DNA of 43,617 nt from Minisyncoccota bacterium. Its GTDB lineage: Bacteria; Patescibacteriota; Minisyncoccia; Phycocordibacterales; UBA6065. The stretch spans positions 1 through 43,617 of the forward strand of contig JBAZUA010000001.1 in assembly GCA_041661645.1 (NCBI GenBank), read 5' to 3'. This document shows positions 3,765 to 35,086 of this stretch, one piece after another (positions within the stretch are counted from its first letter, which is position 1; each line of letters starts with the position of its first letter). Made by a program: the position numbers and the translations under genes. The notes under the pieces were generated by a model. That model had not been told where the DNA came from. It saw only the letters and a list, made by a program, of their open reading frames with translations, and ran no database searches.

Positions 3765-3984
3765 TGATAAAATCTATGCATGAAAGGGCCGAAGCCAAAC
3801 ATAAAAAAAGACCTCGAGATCCTCGCGCTCAAAGCGCAGGGCCTTAGCTTTAGAGCCATCGCTAAGAAGAAAAATCGCGACGTGAAGCGCGTGTATGTGG
3901 CGTACCAGAGGGCAAGGACGCTAGTGGGTGTTGGCGGGTTATCCACAGTTAAGTAACAAGTGGGGCTTTGACGTGTTGGCGGGT
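3752..3984 (+). repeat. Three exact copies of TGTTGGCGGGT (3752-3762, 3929-3939, 3974-3984); DnaA-box TTATCCACA at 3939-3947
   Basis: Read directly from the sequence. Confidence 0.9.
3780..3956 (+). CDS. Small basic HTH DNA-binding protein (58 aa; candidate excisionase or regulator), absent from the supplied ORF track
   Basis: MKGPKPNIKKDLEILALKAQGLSFRAIAKKKNRDVKRVYVAYQRARTLVGVGGLSTVK. The GLSFRAIA...VKRVY segment fits an HTH pattern. Confidence 0.7.
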   Translation: MKGPKPNIKKDLEILALKAQGLSFRAIAKKKNRDVKRVYVAYQRARTLVGVGGLSTVK

Positions 3985-28658: not shown

Positions 28659-29264
28659 TCACTTTGCCTTCCGCCTCTTCTTGCCCTTGGCGAGATAAGC
28701 CTTCCATATCGGGGGCCAATCTTCCTTGAACAGGGCGAGGTTAACGACATCAGGATACCCGCCGTCCCGAAGGACGTGTTTTGCGAGCACACCCTCGACC
28801 TTGTATCCGCATTTCTTGCTGTAGGCAAGGCTGCGGGCGTTAAAGGCGATGACCTGGGAACAGAGCTTTCGGAGACCGAGGTTGCTGAAGGCCCAGTTCA
28901 CGAGCTGCATCTTGGCATCGGTTCCGTAACCCTTGTCCCAATACCTCTTGTCGCCGATCATTGCACCGGACACGGCCACACCATCCGTCCATTTGATGTT
29001 GTGGAAGCCGATGTTTCCGATGTGGACCCCATCCTTGGTCTCTATGGCCAAGACGACGTCGCTCTTTGACCCGGTCGAATGCGACTCGAGCCACTTCCTC
29101 TCGGCTTGCATGGTCAAAGGCCACAGTCCGGATAGATATCGCGACACCTCTGGATCATTGATCCATCGCGTGCAGCGTTCCAGGTCTGACTCCTCCAAAG
29201 GGCGGAGATTCACCATGTTTCCACGGAGAAAGACCACCCGATTACCGTCGTTTGTGTTTTTCAT
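28659..29264 (-). CDS. GNAT N-acetyltransferase, RimJ/RimL family
   Basis: LRPLEESDL, HIGNIGF, YWDKGYGT and N.RSLAYSKKCGYKVEG motifs. Confidence 0.92.
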   Translation of the reverse strand: MKNTNDGNRVVFLRGNMVNLRPLEESDLERCTRWINDPEVSRYLSGLWPLTMQAERKWLESHSTGSKSDVVLAIETKDGVHIGNIGFHNIKWTDGVAVSGAMIGDKRYWDKGYGTDAKMQLVNWAFSNLGLRKLCSQVIAFNARSLAYSKKCGYKVEGVLAKHVLRDGGYPDVVNLALFKEDWPPIWKAYLAKGKKRRKAK

Positions 29265-29361
29265 ATACGTTATGCGTTAGCTGTTAATGAACATGCTCTG
29301 CGGGCAAGGAACCTATACGATAGATAATATGAATATAGTCGCTCACGCTCCTTATTCATAT

Positions 29362-30582: not shown

Positions 30583-30781
30583 GAGCATCTCTCTCAAAAG
30601 GCTCATATTGAAATTCAGGGAACTTGGTTTCGACGGCCCATATTCCGGAGGCCGTCACCTGTTCATGTCCAAGGGAACCCTCAAGGTTCGAGTGCCGAAC
30701 CCTCACAAGGGAGATATCTCCGCCGGACTCGTAACCGAGATTTTAAGACAGGCCGGTATATCAAAAACTGAATGGAAATAA
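30575..30781 (+). CDS. hicA: HicA-like mRNA interferase toxin
   Basis: LGF...GGRH, VPNPHKGDI and ILRQAGI motifs. Confidence 0.88.
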   Translation: MPKSISLKRLILKFRELGFDGPYSGGRHLFMSKGTLKVRVPNPHKGDISAGLVTEILRQAGISKTEWK

Positions 30782-31275
30782 AAACCATCATCCAATCCCG
30801 CCTTTCCGGCCCTTGCCCAACGACATACAGAGACGTCGCTAACTTTTCAGACCTGAAGGACGTGGACATGCACCACGTCTGCGCATACGCCTTTTGTGAC
30901 GGAAAACTCGTGCTCGTATTCGATAAGGATAAAAAGCGTTGGACTCCTCCCGGCGGACACCTTGAAGGTGACGAATCCCTGGAAGAGGGGACGTCCCGCG
31001 AGATTAAAGAGGAAACAAACATGCGTGTGGTTTATCATCAGATGATCGGCCACCAGGCCATCACCGAGCCTCATCGGGTGACGAATCAGACGAGATCATT
31101 CTGTATCGTCGAGCCTTATGGGCCTTTTCTCGCGGATCCTGACGGCGACATAACCGAGATAAAGCTCATCGAACCAAAGGACGCCAAGCAGTATTTCGAT
31201 TGGGGAGTGGTGGGCGAGCATGTGCTGAAAAGGGCGGTGGAGATGCTTGAGGCGTATAATCGGGGTGAGAGATAA
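30772..31275 (+). CDS. NUDIX hydrolase
   Basis: PGGHLEGDESLEEGTSREIKEET Nudix box. Confidence 0.92.
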   Translation: MEIKTIIQSRLSGPCPTTYRDVANFSDLKDVDMHHVCAYAFCDGKLVLVFDKDKKRWTPPGGHLEGDESLEEGTSREIKEETNMRVVYHQMIGHQAITEPHRVTNQTRSFCIVEPYGPFLADPDGDITEIKLIEPKDAKQYFDWGVVGEHVLKRAVEMLEAYNRGER

Positions 31276-31283
31276 TCCAACTA

Positions 31284-31396
31284 GTTCCATTTTGGGACCA
31301 ACTGAACTCAGTGTGTGCAAAATCTACACACACTGACCAAATAAGCTTGGTACATAAGGGTAAATAGCAATGTGCATTTTTTGCACTTTGCTATTT
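31284..31396. repeat. Three tandem imperfect palindromes with A/T cores; the third matches a palindrome inside the downstream gene
   Basis: 31284-31298, 31308-31336 and 31362-31396. Segment 31369-31389 matches the reverse complement of 31681-31701 at 20/21 positions. Confidence 0.8.
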
Positions 31397-31473
31397 TCTT
31401 TTACGGATTGCCCGCTATCGTTTTTTATAAATATCTTATGAGATAAAACACCTCCCATTGCTAGGCTTAGGGG

Positions 31474-32475
31474 ATGAATACTATAAAAATCGAAGAAGAT
31501 AGCGGCGGCATCGTCGTATACGAGGATGAGCGAATGAACTTAGAATTAAAGACCGACATCGAAAAGGAGACGATTTGGGCTACCCAAAGCCAGATTTCTG
31601 ATCTTTTTGGGATAGACAGAACCGTAGTCTCGAAACACATCCAAAACATCATTATTACACAAGAAATAAGCAGAATTAACAATGTGCAAAAAATGCACAT
31701 TGTTAATTCCTTGAGGCCTGTAGCCTTTTATTCGCTTGATATGATCCTCTCTATCGGCTACCGCGTGAACTCAAAAAAGGCCACGAAATTCAGAATCTGG
31801 GCGAACAAGGTCCTCCGCGACTATATTCTCAAAGGCATAGCCGTGAACGACGACCGAATCGAGAAGCTCCACGAAAAGGGCATCACCGACCTCAAGGAAA
31901 AATTGGCCTTCATACAAAATACAGTGAAAAGACGGGAGTTGGATCGCGGGGAAGTGGATAGTCTCCTCTCCGTAATCAACGACTACGCCAATTCCTGGCT
32001 CCTCCTCAAGAAATATGATGATGGGGAAGTGACCATCAGAAAAACAAAATCAAAGGAAACGGTCTCGATTGGGTATCTGTCCGCACGCGCATCATTGGAC
32101 GCGCTCAGGGCGTCGCTCGTCGAAAAGGGCGAGGCGGGAGACCTCTTCGCAAAAGAAAGGGACGAATCATTTCAAGGAATACTCAAAACCATCTATCAAA
32201 CATATGGTGGCGAGGAACTGTATCCAAGCATTGAGGAAAAGGCCTCGCATCTCCTCTACTTCATTATCAAGGACCACCCGTTCTTTGATGGCAACAAGCG
32301 CAGCGGTGCCCTGCTCTTCATCTTCTTCCTCGAGCAAAATGGGATTTTAAGAGGCTTCGACGGCCAGAGAAAGATAAGCGACAATGCCCTGGTTGCCATA
32401 GCCCTCTTGGTGGCTGAAAGCAACCCAAAGGAGAAGGATGTCATGGTTGCGCTGGTGACCCATCTGATTTCCTAG
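31474..32475 (+). CDS. RhuM-family (virulence RhuM-like) protein fused to a Fic/Doc domain
   Basis: ETIWATQSQISDLFG, YSLDMILSIGYRVNS, FRIWA and Fic motif HPFFDGNKRSG. Confidence 0.9.
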   Translation: MNTIKIEEDSGGIVVYEDERMNLELKTDIEKETIWATQSQISDLFGIDRTVVSKHIQNIIITQEISRINNVQKMHIVNSLRPVAFYSLDMILSIGYRVNSKKATKFRIWANKVLRDYILKGIAVNDDRIEKLHEKGITDLKEKLAFIQNTVKRRELDRGEVDSLLSVINDYANSWLLLKKYDDGEVTIRKTKSKETVSIGYLSARASLDALRASLVEKGEAGDLFAKERDESFQGILKTIYQTYGGEELYPSIEEKASHLLYFIIKDHPFFDGNKRSGALLFIFFLEQNGILRGFDGQRKISDNALVAIALLVAESNPKEKDVMVALVTHLIS

Positions 32476-33482
32476 TTCTCCAAACTTCTCATCACCTCCA
32501 CATACAGATCCTCCACGATTTTCTCCTGCGCCTTTCCTGACTTGGCATAATGATCAAGTCCGGGTGCCGCGTTTATCTCGAGTATCCAGTGTTTCCTCGC
32601 CTTCGGTGCCTCGGTGATGTCACCGTCGATCATCAGGTCAACGCCGCAGATACGCAGACCCATGTCCCTGGTGAGGGTAATGGACAATTCGGCGAATTTT
32701 GGGTGAACCGCATCGGTCACGTCTATCGAATCTCCTCCTGTCGACAAGTTGGCATTGTCGAGGAGGAACACGCGTTCCCCCTTGAGGACCACCGACCTCA
32801 ACGAAAGCCCCGAACGGGCGAGCTTTGCGGCAATGCGCGGGTCTGACATCCTGATATGCGTGTCGCGGCCCTCCTCGATGAAATCCCTCTGCTTTTTTCT
32901 CAGAAGTCCCAGAAGGTTCGTCTTCCCGTCGCCGACAACGCTCAAAGGCACGCGCTCATATGCCGATATGATGCGACCGTCGAGCACCACGACGCGATAG
33001 TCCTTGCCCCTGACCAGCTTCTGCACCAGGGCAATGCGATCCCTTTTGAATATGTGTCTGAGTGCCGCCCGAAGCTCTGCCTCGCCATGCACCACGGTGA
33101 CGCCGGAGCCCTGGCTGCCGCTGTTCGGCTTCGCCACGAGAGGGAAGCCGAGTTTGTGGGCATAGGCCACGGCAGCCTCGATCGATGCCTTCGAGCCGAT
33201 CGCCTTGGCCCATGACGGGGAACAGAACGCCTTGCCCGTGATGGTCGGATAGCCCATCCTCTTCATGAAGAAGTTGGCATAGTCCTTGTCCTTGGCGATG
33301 TCGGACGCGCCGACGGGATTGAGGTCGAGGGTGGAGCCCCTGAAATACCTCTTGCGCCCGTTCTTGTACGATATCTGCCCCACATATCCCCAGACTGGCT
33401 CGACGGACACCTTCGCACCTATTCGAGGGGCGATCTTTTTGAGTAAGGCCCCGAGGAACGGGGTTGATTTCGTACGCTTCAT
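32472..33482 (-). CDS. ATP-grasp ligase, cyanophycin-synthetase/GshF-C-terminal-like
   Basis: FPLVAKP.SGSQGSGV, GKDYRVVV, NANLSTGG, CGVDL and LEINAAPGL motifs. Confidence 0.85.
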   Translation of the reverse strand: MKRTKSTPFLGALLKKIAPRIGAKVSVEPVWGYVGQISYKNGRKRYFRGSTLDLNPVGASDIAKDKDYANFFMKRMGYPTITGKAFCSPSWAKAIGSKASIEAAVAYAHKLGFPLVAKPNSGSQGSGVTVVHGEAELRAALRHIFKRDRIALVQKLVRGKDYRVVVLDGRIISAYERVPLSVVGDGKTNLLGLLRKKQRDFIEEGRDTHIRMSDPRIAAKLARSGLSLRSVVLKGERVFLLDNANLSTGGDSIDVTDAVHPKFAELSITLTRDMGLRICGVDLMIDGDITEAPKARKHWILEINAAPGLDHYAKSGKAQEKIVEDLYVEVMRSLEN

Positions 33483-33504
33483 AATTTGGCAATTAAAGCA
33501 TTAA

Positions 33505-33532
33505 TTGACAGAAACACCAAGTATGGTATTTT
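33505..33532 (+). promoter_or_regulatory. Sigma70 promoter with extended -10
   Basis: TTGACA-N16-(TGn)TATTTT. Confidence 0.7.
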
Positions 33533-33538
33533 AAATAC

Positions 33539-33637
33539 ATGAATCGCGAGATTTCAAAAGCAATAAACACCAGCGCCGTGTGGCATTGGGCACATATCCC
33601 AGAAGGGCTTGTGTCTGCTTTTGTGTCGCGCGCGTAA
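33539..33637 (+). CDS. Leaderless leader peptide L2 (32 aa, WHWAH)
   Basis: MNREISKAINTSAVWHWAHIPEGLVSAFVSRA. The ATG is 6 nt after the -10. Confidence 0.6.
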   Translation: MNREISKAINTSAVWHWAHIPEGLVSAFVSRA

Positions 33638-33664
33638 ACATCTCCGCCGTCGTATGAAATCAGG

Positions 33665-33689
33665 AACCAGCCCTTGTGGGCTGGTTTTT
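33665..33689 (+). terminator. Attenuator terminator upstream of the GCS2 gene
   Basis: AACCAGCCC-TTGT-GGGCTGGTT-TTT. Confidence 0.8.
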
Positions 33690-33739
33690 GTTTCCCCTGG
33701 AGACAGAAATGTTCATCGAAAATCCAAATACCACGTATT

Positions 33740-34531
33740 ATGAAAAACTTCAGACGCCTTTTCAGGTTCGATCCTGAAAAGTCCCTGTGTGTCGGCGTCG
33801 AGAGGGAATGCTTCCTCCTCGACGCCTCGGGGCGCATCGCGCCCCTCGCAAAGCAAGCGCTCGGATTATTGAGCGACCCTCGCTTCGATTACGAGCTGTC
33901 AGCGTGTCAGCTCGAGGAGCGAATCGGTCCGTGCCATGTCGATTCAGTCGAGAAGCTCTTCCTTGAAAATGACAGGATTGTTTCCACGGCCCTCAGGGGA
34001 AGCGGTATTCAGCGGAGCTTCCTTGAGGTCGGCCTGACAGACATGCCTCTCGACGTCTATCCCGATCCATCTGGGCGATATGCCGAGATTGCGGGAAATA
34101 TGCCGAGGGAGAAGCTCCTGGCGGCCTGTAGGGTAATCGGAACGCATGTGCATGTCGGCATGCCCAACCATGCTATGGCCCTCAAGGTCTACAATAGCGC
34201 CATCCATCACGTGGATGAGCTCATCCAGATGGGCAACGGATCGTTCGGCGAGAGGCTGTCCATATACAGGACAGTTGCGCCCGCCTGCGATCCGCAACCA
34301 TACGCATCCTGGGAATCCTTCCACGAGGCCGCCGTCAGAGAGGGCTTCAGTGAAGACCCGCGCAGGTGCTGGAGCCTCATCCGTATGTCGAGACACGGGA
34401 CAATCGAGTTCCGCATCTTCGGCTCGACGGATTGTCCCGAGAGAATCGGGCGTTGGGCAAAGCGTTGTCACGAGATCTGCAGGGAGGCCATATCACCGTC
34501 TCCTGTATGTTTCGAGGCACATGCGTGGTAA
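33740..34531 (+). CDS. Glutamate-cysteine ligase family 2 (YbdK-like carboxylate-amine ligase)
   Basis: VGVERECFL, ELSACQLE, GTHVHVG and GTIEFRIFG motifs. Confidence 0.85.
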   Translation: MKNFRRLFRFDPEKSLCVGVERECFLLDASGRIAPLAKQALGLLSDPRFDYELSACQLEERIGPCHVDSVEKLFLENDRIVSTALRGSGIQRSFLEVGLTDMPLDVYPDPSGRYAEIAGNMPREKLLAACRVIGTHVHVGMPNHAMALKVYNSAIHHVDELIQMGNGSFGERLSIYRTVAPACDPQPYASWESFHEAAVREGFSEDPRRCWSLIRMSRHGTIEFRIFGSTDCPERIGRWAKRCHEICREAISPSPVCFEAHAW

Positions 34532-34600
34532 TCGGATTGAGATAGACGCGAGGGCGTCTCTAAATTGACGCCCTCTTTTATAAGGATTAGCATTACCACA

Positions 34601-35086
34601 ATGATTTTTTACTTTGCCTACGGCTCAAACATGGACGAGAAACAGATGAGGGAAAGATGCCCCGACGCACGATTCGTTTCGGTTGCGAGGCTTGATGATT
34701 TCAAGCTCGATTTCACCATCCACTCTCCAAAGAGACAGTGTGGATGCGCGGATGTCGTGTTCGCTCGGGGTGAGAAGACATACGGAATACTGTACGAGAT
34801 GTCTGCCGCCGACATCTTGAGACTCGACGGTTTCGAATCAGTCCCGACCGCATATATTAGAAACACGAAAGGGGTCAAAAGTGCGGACGGAAAGATGCAT
34901 AAAGCATTCGTCTATGAGGTGGCGGATAAAAAAGAATTCATCGCCCCTTCAGCAGATTACCTCAACCTTATCCTGAACGCCGCCCAAAAGCATTCCTTTC
35001 CGAAAGATTACACACAAGGACTCGTCACATTAATTCCTCAAATTAACAATGAAATACCAAATAGGGGTCATGGGATCCGCGGCTGA
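34601..35086 (+). CDS. Gamma-glutamylcyclotransferase (AIG2/ChaC-like fold)
   Basis: YFAYGSNM, GILYEM and LDGFE motifs. Confidence 0.9.
   Translation: MIFYFAYGSNMDEKQMRERCPDARFVSVARLDDFKLDFTIHSPKRQCGCADVVFARGEKTYGILYEMSAADILRLDGFESVPTAYIRNTKGVKSADGKMHKAFVYEVADKKEFIAPSADYLNLILNAAQKHSFPKDYTQGLVTLIPQINNEIPNRGHGIRG

Follow-up and report, generated by a model that had tools for sequence, protein, structure and literature searches.

L2, the leader of a predicted GCS2-like ligase gene in the stretch of DNA analyzed here, is probably a ribosome-mediated transcription attenuator that senses the supply of Trp-tRNA(Trp) and controls the ligase gene, and it most likely turns this gene on when charged Trp-tRNA is short. 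The window, as we call the whole stretch of 43,617 nucleotides, comes from an uncultured Patescibacteria (CPR) MAG, and the host is an ultrasmall, amino-acid-auxotrophic groundwater bacterium. L2 comprises a short ORF with Trp codons, a terminator before the gene and mutually exclusive helices, features by which an attenuator is recognized. Orthologous ligase genes are linked to Trp by T-boxes, by Trp leaders and by adjacency to trpS or tRNA-Trp genes.

The start of the leader consists of the following features:

33505..33532, forward strand: sigma-70-type promoter, with TTGACA at 33505-33510, a 16-nt spacer and TG-TATTTT (TATTTT at 33527-33532); 10 of 12 positions match, plus the TG extension
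33539..33637, forward strand: leader ORF L2, 32 codons, encoding MNREISKAINTSAVWHWAHIPEGLVSAFVSRA, with its stop codon at 33635-37
33581..33589, forward strand: candidate regulatory codons UGG-CAU-UGG (W15, H16, W17), on the 3′ strand of hairpin P2 and immediately 5′ of the protector stem

The ATG at 33539 lies 6 nt past the −10 hexamer, and the ORF is thus leaderless or nearly so. From the position of the promoter we infer that transcription starts at or beside this ATG, giving a leaderless mRNA; no RNA-seq run containing the locus was found. The closest relative, a locus termed L081, has the same promoter geometry (TTGACA-16-TACTTT, 6 nt, GTG). The original prediction of a leaderless small ORF reading W15-H16-W17-A-H19 was thus borne out, each element lying where it had been placed (W15 at 33581-83, H16 at 33584-86, W17 at 33587-89 and H19 at 33593-95).

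The 174-nt leader folds at −64.5 kcal/mol, compared with −49.3 ± 4.1 kcal/mol for 200 shuffled sequences (z = −3.8), none of which was as stable. The helices of the minimum free energy (MFE) fold and the competing structures are as follows:

33545..33632, forward strand: 5′ domain (anti-antiterminator), a three-way junction in the MFE fold, with closing helix 33545-52 paired with 33625-32
33555-62 with 33616-23, forward strand: helix P1 of the 5′ domain, MFE fold
33570-77 with 33582-89, forward strand: helix P2 of the 5′ domain, MFE fold
33590-94 with 33610-14 and 33598-600 with 33605-07, forward strand: P3, the protector, in the 5′ domain, MFE fold
33598..33680, forward strand: predicted antiterminator, a long imperfect helix between 33598-33637 (the 3′ half of the ORF, including CCCAGAAGGGCU) and 33640-33680 (including AGCCCUUGUGGG)
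33661..33693, forward strand: intrinsic terminator, a 13-bp G+C-rich stem with core AACCAGCCC / GGGCUGGUU and loop UUGU, followed by UUUUUGUUU

The MFE fold of the 5′ domain sequesters the 5′ strand of the antiterminator, whose 3′ strand is made up of the spacer and of the 5′ arm and loop of the terminator. The terminator, which reads AACCAGCCC-TTGT-GGGCTGGTT-TTTGTTT as DNA at 33665-33693, has a stability of about −25 kcal/mol alone and sits 47 nt upstream of the ligase ATG. The consensus fold of the window and L081 retains P1, P2, P3 and the terminator. A protector hairpin beginning at the W17 codon had been predicted and is present, with GGCACA (33589-94) paired to TGTGTC (33610-15) and CCC-AGAA-GGG inside. 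The complementarity between AAGGGCT (33603-09) and AGCCCTT of the terminator (33669-75), first read as a 7-bp antiterminator, is real, but the antiterminator found here is far longer. Both UGG codons are part of helix P2, and their conservation therefore owes something to structure.

We modeled a stalled ribosome as a mask extending as far as 13 nt beyond W15 or W17. Under either mask, co-transcriptional folding of the window leader leads to the antiterminator, at −31 to −37 kcal/mol, and this helix, seen in the partial transcripts of both the window and L081, persists in the window after the 3′ arm of the terminator has been made. Without a mask, or with the mask at the stop codon, the terminator folds. 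L081 gives the same outcome with the W15-equivalent mask, whereas with the W17-equivalent mask its full-length fold flips to the terminator (−32.8 vs −32.3 kcal/mol). For the full-length window leader with a stalled ribosome, the terminator is likewise about 1 kcal/mol better than the antiterminator, so that antitermination would have to be kinetic, as in E. coli trp. These masked folds, together with the consensus structure of the off state, support the classical layout of 1:2, 2:3 and 3:4 helices that had been proposed for this leader.

Comparison with L081 indicates what has been constrained. The ligase genes of the two loci share 67% amino-acid identity and 70% nucleotide identity, with 48% at third codon positions. 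Between the leaders, 50 of 51 nt are identical from W17 to the stop codon, without a single synonymous change in 16 codons, while about 8 would be expected at the rate of the ligase gene, where 49% of the codons for identical residues differ; this argues for a constraint on the RNA rather than on the peptide. The terminator stem is identical at 24 of 24 nt, compared with 67% identity in the 5′ half of the ORF and the spacer, and the U-tract of L081 (UUCUGUCUUUUC) is weaker than that of the window. The ORF of L081 encodes MNHLILKAVNTNGSNGAWRWAHTPEGLVSAFVSRA; a 9-nt indel preserves its frame, and its stop codon is the same. The exact leader type is known from three variants, namely the window, L081 and the Logan contigs X3/X4, of which the freshwater contig X3 differs from the window in the spacer only. 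The original prediction depended on the Trp and His codons being conserved in homologous leaders. This proved right for Trp, both UGG codons being kept in L081 (UGG-CGU-UGG) and in the freshwater variant, and only partly so for His, as L081 keeps H19 but replaces H16 by Arg.

We compared the window with a set of 85 homologous ligase loci. About 55 of them carry, at the position of the leader, a short T-box with a UGG-type specifier, recognized by the motif GGUGG[C/U]ACC[A/G]CG 110-240 nt upstream of the gene and by a terminator. With the Rfam T-box model (RF00230), five loci reach 31-41 bits, which is under the gathering threshold, and the whole regulon is therefore missed by standard annotation. 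These T-boxes have a short Stem I with a covarying lower helix and with R-Y-UGG-G on the 3′ side of the loop. At the N of UGGN, 39 loci have C and 16 have U, which fits the discriminator of the neighboring tRNA-Trp, G73 in 12/12 of the genes with an encoded CCA end (21 tRNA-Trp genes found). A specifier read as YUG (Leu) is formally possible, and was rejected only through this discriminator match and the linkage to trpS and tRNA-Trp: 34 loci have trpS (TIGR00233, 260 bits) within 3.5 kb of the ligase gene, and 21-25 have tRNA-Trp within about 4 kb. The trpS genes of the loci examined lack a T-box. About 15 further loci carry other Trp-codon leaders at the same position.

Since most orthologues use an RNA sensor, the ORF of L2 could be incidental, with the terminator or antiterminator chosen by a ligand of a structured RNA, whether a riboswitch or an element that binds a protein or tRNA. 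The 5′ domain is indeed a stable three-way junction, and the conserved part of L2 has been kept as nucleotides and not as peptide. Nevertheless, we regard this explanation as improbable. The window and L081 have the same distance between −10 hexamer and start codon, the 9-nt indel does not break the reading frame, the stop codon is conserved, and several unrelated leaders at the same position are short ORFs with Trp codons just 5′ of a protector strand. Moreover, the window leader lacks the T-box sequence AGGGUGGNACCGCG, a UGGN bulge in the antiterminator and a Stem I with a specifier loop; in the window and the closest loci no Rfam family, RF00513 (Trp_leader) included, reaches its gathering threshold, and at E ≤ 10 the region 33480-33745 gives only chance-level matches to unrelated families.

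The other Trp-codon leaders bear directly on which amino acid would be sensed. Three of them are of a WW type and are followed by terminators (L031, ...NNFWWTWQNL; L063, ...LAWWAY...; L078, ...FISWWNRS...). Eleven others, of a WHH type (MKKTAIQxNNWHHNH..EGG.W..), precede M20-(GNAT)-GCS2 operons, and their W is invariant in 11/11. The GAAGGG:CCCUUC antiterminator of the WHH leaders is paired at 97.7% with 3 compensatory pairs, a covariation score that 0/500 shuffles reach. Trp makes up 7.0% of leader residues against 1.2% in neighboring ORFs. The single-W leaders were selected for containing W. MAFFT aligns the UGG and GAAGGG elements of L2 with those of the WHH leaders. However, a covariance model trained on these 11 leaders fails to detect L2, and we dropped the assignment of L2 to this family; the link is one of shared design, homology being not proven.

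Histidine is the harder case. If H16 and H19 were also regulatory, shortage of either charged tRNA would relieve termination, a dual attenuation that would resemble the multivalent attenuation of thr or ilvGMEDA. The window leader reads W-H-W-A-H and the 11 WHH leaders W-H-H-(N/D/T/G)-H; among 13 leaders, 11 have His at +1, 11 at +2 and 12 at +4, with CAU/CAC variation present, and it makes up 9.2% of leader residues against a background of 2.2%. A ribosome paused at +1 or +2 would keep the antiterminator strand free, and hisS lies 1.1 kb downstream in the window. Several observations nevertheless make such dual sensing unlikely: H16 is Arg in the closest homologue, the WW-type leaders have no His, the T-boxes of the ligase genes read one tRNA only, and hisS or tRNA-His is found near the ligase gene in 2 of 86 loci, compared with 34 for trpS. 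In addition, the His codons of the WHH leaders form the 5′ strand of the protector hairpin and covary with its 3′ strand (AAC/GAC with UAU/CAU), so structure can explain their conservation. The proposal of amino-acid or stalling control over a non-biosynthetic gene is supported for Trp, given the conserved codons and the Trp-type T-boxes and Trp-rich leaders of the orthologues, and less so for His.

A role of the peptide itself had been suggested as well, given that L2 sits between two amide-bond ligases. L2 would then be a RiPP-like substrate of the ATP-grasp and GCS2 ligases, with the terminator setting the ratio of peptide to enzyme, or a TnaC-like peptide that arrests with free Trp. L081 has the same 12 C-terminal residues, conservation among the WHH peptides is good, and one other contig has a RimK/Ddl-type ATP-grasp gene two genes from a GNAT-GCS2 fusion. 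Against this, a tblastn search for ATP-grasp genes beside the ligase came up empty for L081 and for each of the first 85 loci, and in about 55 orthologous loci this place is taken by a T-box, without a peptide gene. The C-terminal half of L2 is the stretch with 0 synonymous changes where about 8 were expected, and the paired changes of the WHH leaders alter amino acids (N/D with Y/H) while preserving base pairs. A protein search with the 42-aa stop-to-stop frame gave no homologue, no called protein resembles L2, and a metagenome-wide DNA pattern back-translated from PEGLVSAFVS had zero matches. As for TnaC, the logic of the T-boxes is induction on starvation, the opposite of arrest by free Trp. 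We thus consider a functional peptide very improbable, and the substrate role was not supported. A kinship between L2 and the leader L1 through a shared V-W-x3-H-x-P did not hold up either, as the V is A in L081 and neither V nor P is conserved among L2-like leaders; L1 has one Trp codon, another terminator (AUCCCGGCU...) and another downstream gene, and was set aside as another leader family.

The gene that the attenuator would control, and the features next to it, are as follows:

33740..34531, forward strand: minimal GCS2/YbdK-fold carboxylate-amine ligase (predicted), 263 aa, its start set by an alignment of 23 sequences
33709..33777, forward strand: second small ORF of 22 codons, with the Shine-Dalgarno sequence GGAG at 33699-33702, overlapping the ligase start out of frame and opening with the conserved motif ATGTTCATCGA
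34550..34581, forward strand: post-ligase terminator, GAGGGCGUC-N8-GACGCCCUC-UUUUAU

A ligase start at 33709/33710 was rejected, as the alignment fixes the ATG at 33740. NCBIfam gave only weak YbdK/GCL matches (43 bits against a cutoff of 409), and a PDB profile search with the ligase family found no sequence match. The AlphaFold model (pLDDT 92.6) has the YbdK structures 1R8G and 1TT4 as its top Foldseek matches (TM 0.72-0.75, E about 1e-9), the best being 1R8G (TM 0.75, E 1.5e-9). The protein is thus predicted to have the glutamine-synthetase-like/GCL fold of YbdK and to be an ATP-dependent ligase, about 100 residues shorter than YbdK. The claim that the target is a gene of the carboxylate-amine ligase fold and not one of amino-acid biosynthesis is supported. 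The ligase is no known Trp enzyme, yet its orthologues lie behind Trp-type T-boxes and near trpS and tRNA-Trp. The motif ATGTTCATCGA recurs before a GNAT gene (29284-29294, minus strand), and in L081 the ATG equivalent to 33709 is in frame with the ligase. Overlapping the post-ligase terminator is a promoter-like site (TTGACG at 34565, TAGCAT at 34588-93) that leads to a GGACT gene with its ATG at 34601, an arrangement suggesting that the attenuator governs a monocistronic ligase transcript. PADLOC gave no match for L2, the ligase, GGACT, SLOG or the ATP-grasp; its only match was the RhuM-Fic neighbor, a candidate defense family.

Based on these folds, we propose the following model, which assumes transcription-translation coupling and leaderless initiation in Patescibacteria. 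Transcription would begin at or beside the ATG of the leaderless 32-codon ORF. When Trp-tRNA is plentiful, the ribosome would reach the stop codon at 33635-37, leaving 33598-33637 unable to pair with the spacer and the terminator arm; without translation of the leader, the 5′ domain (33545-33632) would remain folded and hide the same 33598-33637. Either way the terminator at 33661-33693 would form, and transcription would end before the ligase gene. When charged tRNA-Trp is scarce, the ribosome would pause with the UGG at 33581-83 or 33587-89 in its A site, melting P1, P2 and the 5′ arm of the protector and leaving free a strand from about 33598/33600 to 33637. This strand could then pair with nascent 33640-33680 and capture the 5′ arm and loop of the terminator, allowing the polymerase to enter the ligase gene.

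That Trp-tRNA sensors were recruited repeatedly and independently argues strongly, on genetic grounds, that this uncharacterized ligase acts when tryptophan is short, and it offers a testable way into the amino-acid shortage responses of ultrasmall symbiotic bacteria. A wider reading is possible, although we rate it somewhat below even: Patescibacteria may share a phylum-wide response to Trp starvation, whose main target would be neither trpS nor Trp synthesis but a minimal ligase of the GCS2 fold whose amide-cleaving partner is interchangeable, and a co-response to His is possible in the W-H leaders. The partners may be AstE/AspA-like, GGACT, EgtC-like or M20 proteins, and at least four unrelated sensors would have come to act on this one gene, namely the short-Stem-I T-box, the WW leaders, the WHH leaders and the leaderless W-x-W leader. 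Such a response would imply an undescribed ATP-dependent route of Trp capture, salvage or sparing, which, if it exists, might run via a gamma-glutamyl- or N-acyl-Trp intermediate. Our literature search turned up no publication on this ligase, on the attenuator of the window, or on CPR T-boxes or Trp attenuators.

Leader-peptide attenuation is a textbook mechanism for biosynthetic operons of Proteobacteria and Actinobacteria, and the window would show its classical logic in an uncultured CPR/Patescibacteria bacterium, on a non-biosynthetic gene. Like L2, the trpL leader of E. coli and other proteobacteria (RF00513) has a short ORF with two Trp codons and mutually exclusive protector (1:2), antiterminator (2:3) and terminator (3:4) helices, and, as we propose for L2, a ribosome stalled at UGG picks the antiterminator by a kinetic choice although the terminator is thermodynamically stronger. 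In contrast with trpL, to which it has no sequence or Rfam match, L2 is leaderless, has a His codon between its Trp codons, places the protector within a three-way junction, forms an imperfect antiterminator of roughly 30 bp and, in a Patescibacteria host, precedes an orphan GCS2-fold ligase gene rather than Trp biosynthesis.

Leaderless small ORFs acting as attenuators are known in Actinobacteria, as in the mycobacterial polycysteine ORFs and the trp, ilv and leu leaders of Corynebacterium. They resemble L2 in being mini-ORFs enriched in the codons of one amino acid that control downstream genes in cis. They differ in having cognate biosynthetic targets and, for some, translational control without an intrinsic terminator; they belong to another phylum and have no sequence similarity to L2.

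Trp-specific T-box leaders (RF00230) are known, for example, at rtpA-ycbK and trpS of B. subtilis. The short-Stem-I T-boxes of the orthologous ligases share with L2 the position, the gene family, the terminator/antiterminator output and a signal that is probably uncharged tRNA-Trp, whereas L2, lacking the T-box sequence, Stem I and tRNA-binding elements, would read charging via the ribosome and not by binding tRNA. Similar in design are the WHH leaders (L003-L091) and the WW leaders L031, L063 and L078. Their spacings are off by one or two codons relative to L2, and the WHH leaders precede an M20 peptidase gene and then GNAT-GCS2. As in L2, they have short, mostly leaderless ORFs with Trp codons just 5′ of the protector strand, their E-G codons (GAAGGG) pair with the terminator arm CCCUU(C), and the same gene family lies downstream.

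The window derives from a groundwater Patescibacteria/Parcubacteria MAG. The leader lies in the intergenic region between a divergent ATP-grasp gene and the ligase gene, whose start was fixed by a 23-sequence alignment in which the ligase N-terminus reads M-x-x-F. The features of the locus are as follows.

32472-33482, minus strand: divergent RimK/cyanophycin-synthetase-like ATP-grasp gene
33483-33739: intergenic region between the two genes, holding the leader
33505-33510 and 33527-33532: near-consensus promoter, TTGACA, 16 nt, TG-TATTTT
33539-33637: L2, leader ORF of 32 codons, encoding MNREISKAINTSAVWHWAHIPEGLVSAFVSRA
3′ of L2: strong intrinsic terminator, AACCAGCCC-UUGU-GGGCUGGUU plus UUUUUGUUU
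33740: true start codon (ATG) of the ligase gene, 263 aa
34550-34581: the ligase gene's own terminator
34601: ATG of GGACT, the gene 3′ of the ligase, placed at the transcription start by its promoter

The promoter ends only 6 nt 5′ of the ATG at 33539, so that, with the start site inferred from sequence, the L2 ORF would be leaderless or nearly so. Given that the ligase has its own terminator and GGACT its own promoter, the attenuator probably controls the ligase alone. The terminator hairpin directly 3′ of the ligase and the promoter that overlaps it occupy 34532-34601; this genome seems to use leaderless starts often, L2 and GGACT being two cases.

Folding gave about -25 kcal/mol for the L2 terminator alone, and a z-score of -3.8 for the whole leader against 200 shuffles, none of which folds as well. 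Without constraint, the 5′ part adopts a three-way junction (33545-33632) made up of the following helices, and the hairpins of the original prediction are present where it had placed them.

P1: 33555-33562 with 33616-33623
P2: 33570-33577 with 33582-33589, both UGG codons inside
P3, the previously proposed protector: 33590-33594 with 33610-33614

We imitated a paused ribosome by a mask reaching 13 nt past W15 or W17 and folded growing transcripts. In these masked folds, a long and imperfect helix (-31 to -37 kcal/mol) joins 33598-33637 to 33640-33680. It includes the CCCAGAAGGGCU : AGCCCUUGUGGG pairing, draws in both the loop and the 5′ arm of the terminator, and is still the best fold once the terminator 3′ arm has been made. 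Folds without the mask give the terminator, as do those with the ribosome placed on the stop codon. The 1:2 / 2:3 / 3:4 layout proposed from the sequence is thus borne out by the masked and unmasked folds, and the 7-bp complementarity on which it was built is contained in the antiterminator, which extends well past 7 bp. At full length the two states lie about 1 kcal/mol apart, so the decision must be kinetic, as it likewise is in E. coli trp attenuation. Ribosome stalling on L2 and the direction of control are predictions of this folding model.

The nearest ligase (67% identity) is encoded on a JGI contig, L081, which has the same leader with the same promoter geometry and a leader ORF reading GTG..MNHLILKAVNTNGSNGAWRWAHTPEGLVSAFVSRA-stop. 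A 9-nt indel between the two ORFs keeps the frame. Of the Trp and His codons, whose conservation the original prediction had put at stake, both UGG codons and H19 are kept, as is the stop codon, and H16 is replaced by Arg. Conservation between the window and L081 is very uneven.

Ligase coding sequence: 70% nucleotide identity, 48% at third codon positions, different codons at 87 of 179 identical residues
Leader from W17 to stop: 50 of 51 nt identical, 16 codons free of synonymous change
Terminator: 24 of 24 nt identical
5′ half of the ORF: 67% identical
Spacer: 67% identical

Such near-total nucleotide identity without synonymous change indicates an RNA-level constraint on the 3′ half of the ORF, in keeping with a role as antiterminator strand; on the 5′ half the constraint is mainly that of a reading frame. 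The two spacers are unlike in sequence, yet in folding both pair with the constant ORF strand, and a freshwater metagenome yielded a 151-nt contig in which the spacer is the sole difference from the window. This exact leader is known in three variants only. That the RNA binds a ligand and the ORF is incidental is unlikely, since start codon, frame and stop codon are preserved and Trp-codon ORFs recur in unrelated leaders.

We fetched 85 loci encoding relatives of the ligase. About 55 of them carry GGUGG[C/U]ACC[A/G]CG 110-240 nt 5′ of the gene, followed by a terminator; a few T-boxes lie further 5′, with a small ORF intervening. With most of Stem I absent, the Rfam T-box model aligns at only 31-41 bits in five such loci (gathering score 93), so that T-boxes of this kind would escape standard annotation. 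Stem I itself consists of a short hairpin on top of a freely covarying lower helix, and its internal loop has R-Y-U-G-G-G on the 3′ side throughout. These T-boxes (e.g., L082:5700-5990, L001:874-1101) are transcriptional and keep a K-turn-like AUGA and a small cap hairpin, without the distal platform. Position N of the UGGN bulge is occupied by C (39 loci) or U (16 loci), and G73 is found in 12/12 of the neighboring tRNA-Trp genes that encode the CCA end (12 of the 21 found). Bacterial tRNA-Leu has A73 as discriminator. The fit of C or U to G73 leads us to prefer the register UGG+G (Trp) over YUG+G (Leu) for the specifier. Moreover, 21-25 loci have a tRNA-Trp gene no more than about 4 kb from the ligase (about 1% per locus would be expected by chance in a 1-Mb genome), and 34 have trpS (TIGR00233, 260 bits) within 3.5 kb. 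A chorismate-mutase/SAM-methyltransferase fusion gene occurs near the ligase, trpS and tRNA-Trp in 17 of the 85 loci (e.g., L038:914-2062), and a PLP-dependent decarboxylase of tyrosine/aromatic type in 6-7, which suggests a wider aromatic-amino-acid neighborhood.

Trp leaders with a terminator and no T-box are found at L031 (MKSIPRNNFWWTWQNL), L063 (...KKLAWWAYRNPLQS) and L078 (MNRLEASLFISWWNRS....). Single-W ORFs at several other loci without a T-box were chosen for containing W and carry little weight. A further type, WHH, comprises 11 distinct leaders, MKKTAIQxNNWHHNH(L/F)xxEGGxWHV-stop plus a terminator, 5′ of M20-peptidase-(GNAT)-GCS2 operons, GCS2 being the YbdK/GCL fold family of the ligase. 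Their first W is invariant. GAAGGG, the sequence of their E-G codons, is complementary to the terminator arm CCCUUC and is 97.7% paired with it, with compensatory changes at three pairs, versus 41-65% pairing in slid controls; 0/500 shuffles reach the antiterminator covariation score. Over all these leaders Trp makes up 7.0% of residues, versus 1.2% in neighboring ORFs. MAFFT aligns the UGG of L2, the next His codons, GAAGGG and the terminator with the WHH leaders. A covariance model built from the WHH leaders alone did not detect L2; we therefore argue for a shared design and not for homology. The kinship of L2 with the leader L1 that had been proposed from V-W-x3-H-x-P does not hold: L2-like leaders do not conserve V and P, and in L1 (13277-13429) there is a single Trp codon and another terminator, which L3 shares.

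WHH leaders are probably leaderless too. Leader ORFs with Phe runs and one Trp occur at two distant loci, in Buchananbacteria and Microgenomates (L075:~30-140, ..GWQFFFFTEE..; L080:~3830-3930, ..GNFFFWLNT..), and are followed by the terminator CUGGCCGCC..GGCCAG; these may be aromatic (Phe/Trp) attenuators. In four M20-GCS2 operons without the GNAT fusion (L004, L008, L012, L058), M20 ends in H-W-stop or S-W-C-K-stop about 150 nt 5′ of the GCS2 start, and directly 3′ of it stand two conserved hairpins, GGCUAUCCCGAC...GUCGGGGAUAGUC and ACUGCCCGCA...UGUGGGCAGU, then the GTTCTTTAA element. This arrangement may be a second, internal control point.

Several unrelated Trp-tRNA sensors thus converge on one gene family, and this convergence is the strongest argument that the UGG codons of L2 are regulatory and that the gene would be induced by Trp shortage. 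A TnaC-like sensing of free Trp by L2 would have a regulatory sign opposite to that of the T-boxes. A genuine His response is suggested by W-H-W-A-H in L2 and by the W-H-H-x-H block of the WHH family, with its CAU/CAC variation; we consider it doubtful, given the loss of H16 in L081, the WW type of leader without His, and the rarity of hisS or tRNA-His as neighbors of the ligase (2 of 86 loci). Moreover, the 5′ strand of the protector hairpin is made up of the His codons, which covary with their partner, AAC/GAC pairing with UAU/CAU and altering the encoded residues. The original prediction also offered L2 as a peptide substrate of the flanking ligases. The gene annotation of one contig does place a similar ATP-grasp two genes from a GNAT-GCS2 fusion, but a tblastn search of L081 and the first 85 loci returned no ATP-grasp, a T-box takes the place of a peptide gene in most orthologues, and synonymous changes are absent from the conserved half of L2, making such a RiPP-like role unlikely.

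The window ligase has no match in Pfam or in a PDB profile search and scores at most 43 bits with the NCBIfam YbdK/GCL models (cutoffs 176-427). Its AlphaFold model is confident (pLDDT 92.6) and best matches E. coli YbdK (1R8G, TM 0.75, E 1.5e-9), then plant glutamate-cysteine ligase and glutamine synthetases; on this model, "carboxylate-amine ligase" is correct as a fold assignment. Downstream partners are an AstE/AspA-like deacylase (~40 loci), GGACT (~10, window included) and an EgtC-like amidohydrolase (4); an M20 peptidase lies upstream in ~9 loci and a GNAT is fused in 5. This pairing of ligase and hydrolase suggests that an amide intermediate may be made and later cleaved.

Between terminator and start codon lies a conserved element (window 33709-33719, plus strand, and 29284-29294, minus strand; L081:788-830), ATGTTCATYRA...ACGTAT..ATGAAAAAC, found in the window 5′ of the ligase and of a separate GNAT gene (28659-29264, minus strand). 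Its core, GTTC[ATC]TT, occurs at 42 of 84 GCS2 loci, 25-80 nt 5′ of where the ligase starts, versus 3-4% of background windows, whichever sensor is present, T-box or leader peptide. As its reading-frame outcome differs by locus (in the window it gives a uORF out of frame, in L081 an extension in frame, and before GNAT a 5-codon ORF), it acts as nucleotides, not peptide; candidate roles are a second layer of regulation, a protein-binding site or a processing site. In L081 a NUDIX gene lies directly 5′ of the leader (L081:1-790 versus window 30772-33482); in the window, the ATP-grasp gene and a RhuM-Fic gene (31474-32475) that matches the PADLOC candidate family PDC-S23 (1.7e-115) intervene, and L081 has NUDIX-RhuM/Fic 3.5 kb downstream instead. 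We read this as local rearrangement around a candidate defence gene.

In a full-text literature search, no paper was found on how this ligase is regulated, nor any that describes Trp attenuators or T-boxes in CPR/Patescibacteria. The L2 leader is neither a T-box nor a member of Rfam Trp_leader or any other Rfam family; its modeled mechanism is of the same type as trp-leader attenuation. Added here to the known systems are a leaderless W-x-W leader type whose antiterminator is long, and the WHH leaders as a family standing 5′ of M20-(GNAT)-GCS2 operons, and the main value lies in what convergent regulation says about an orphan enzyme.
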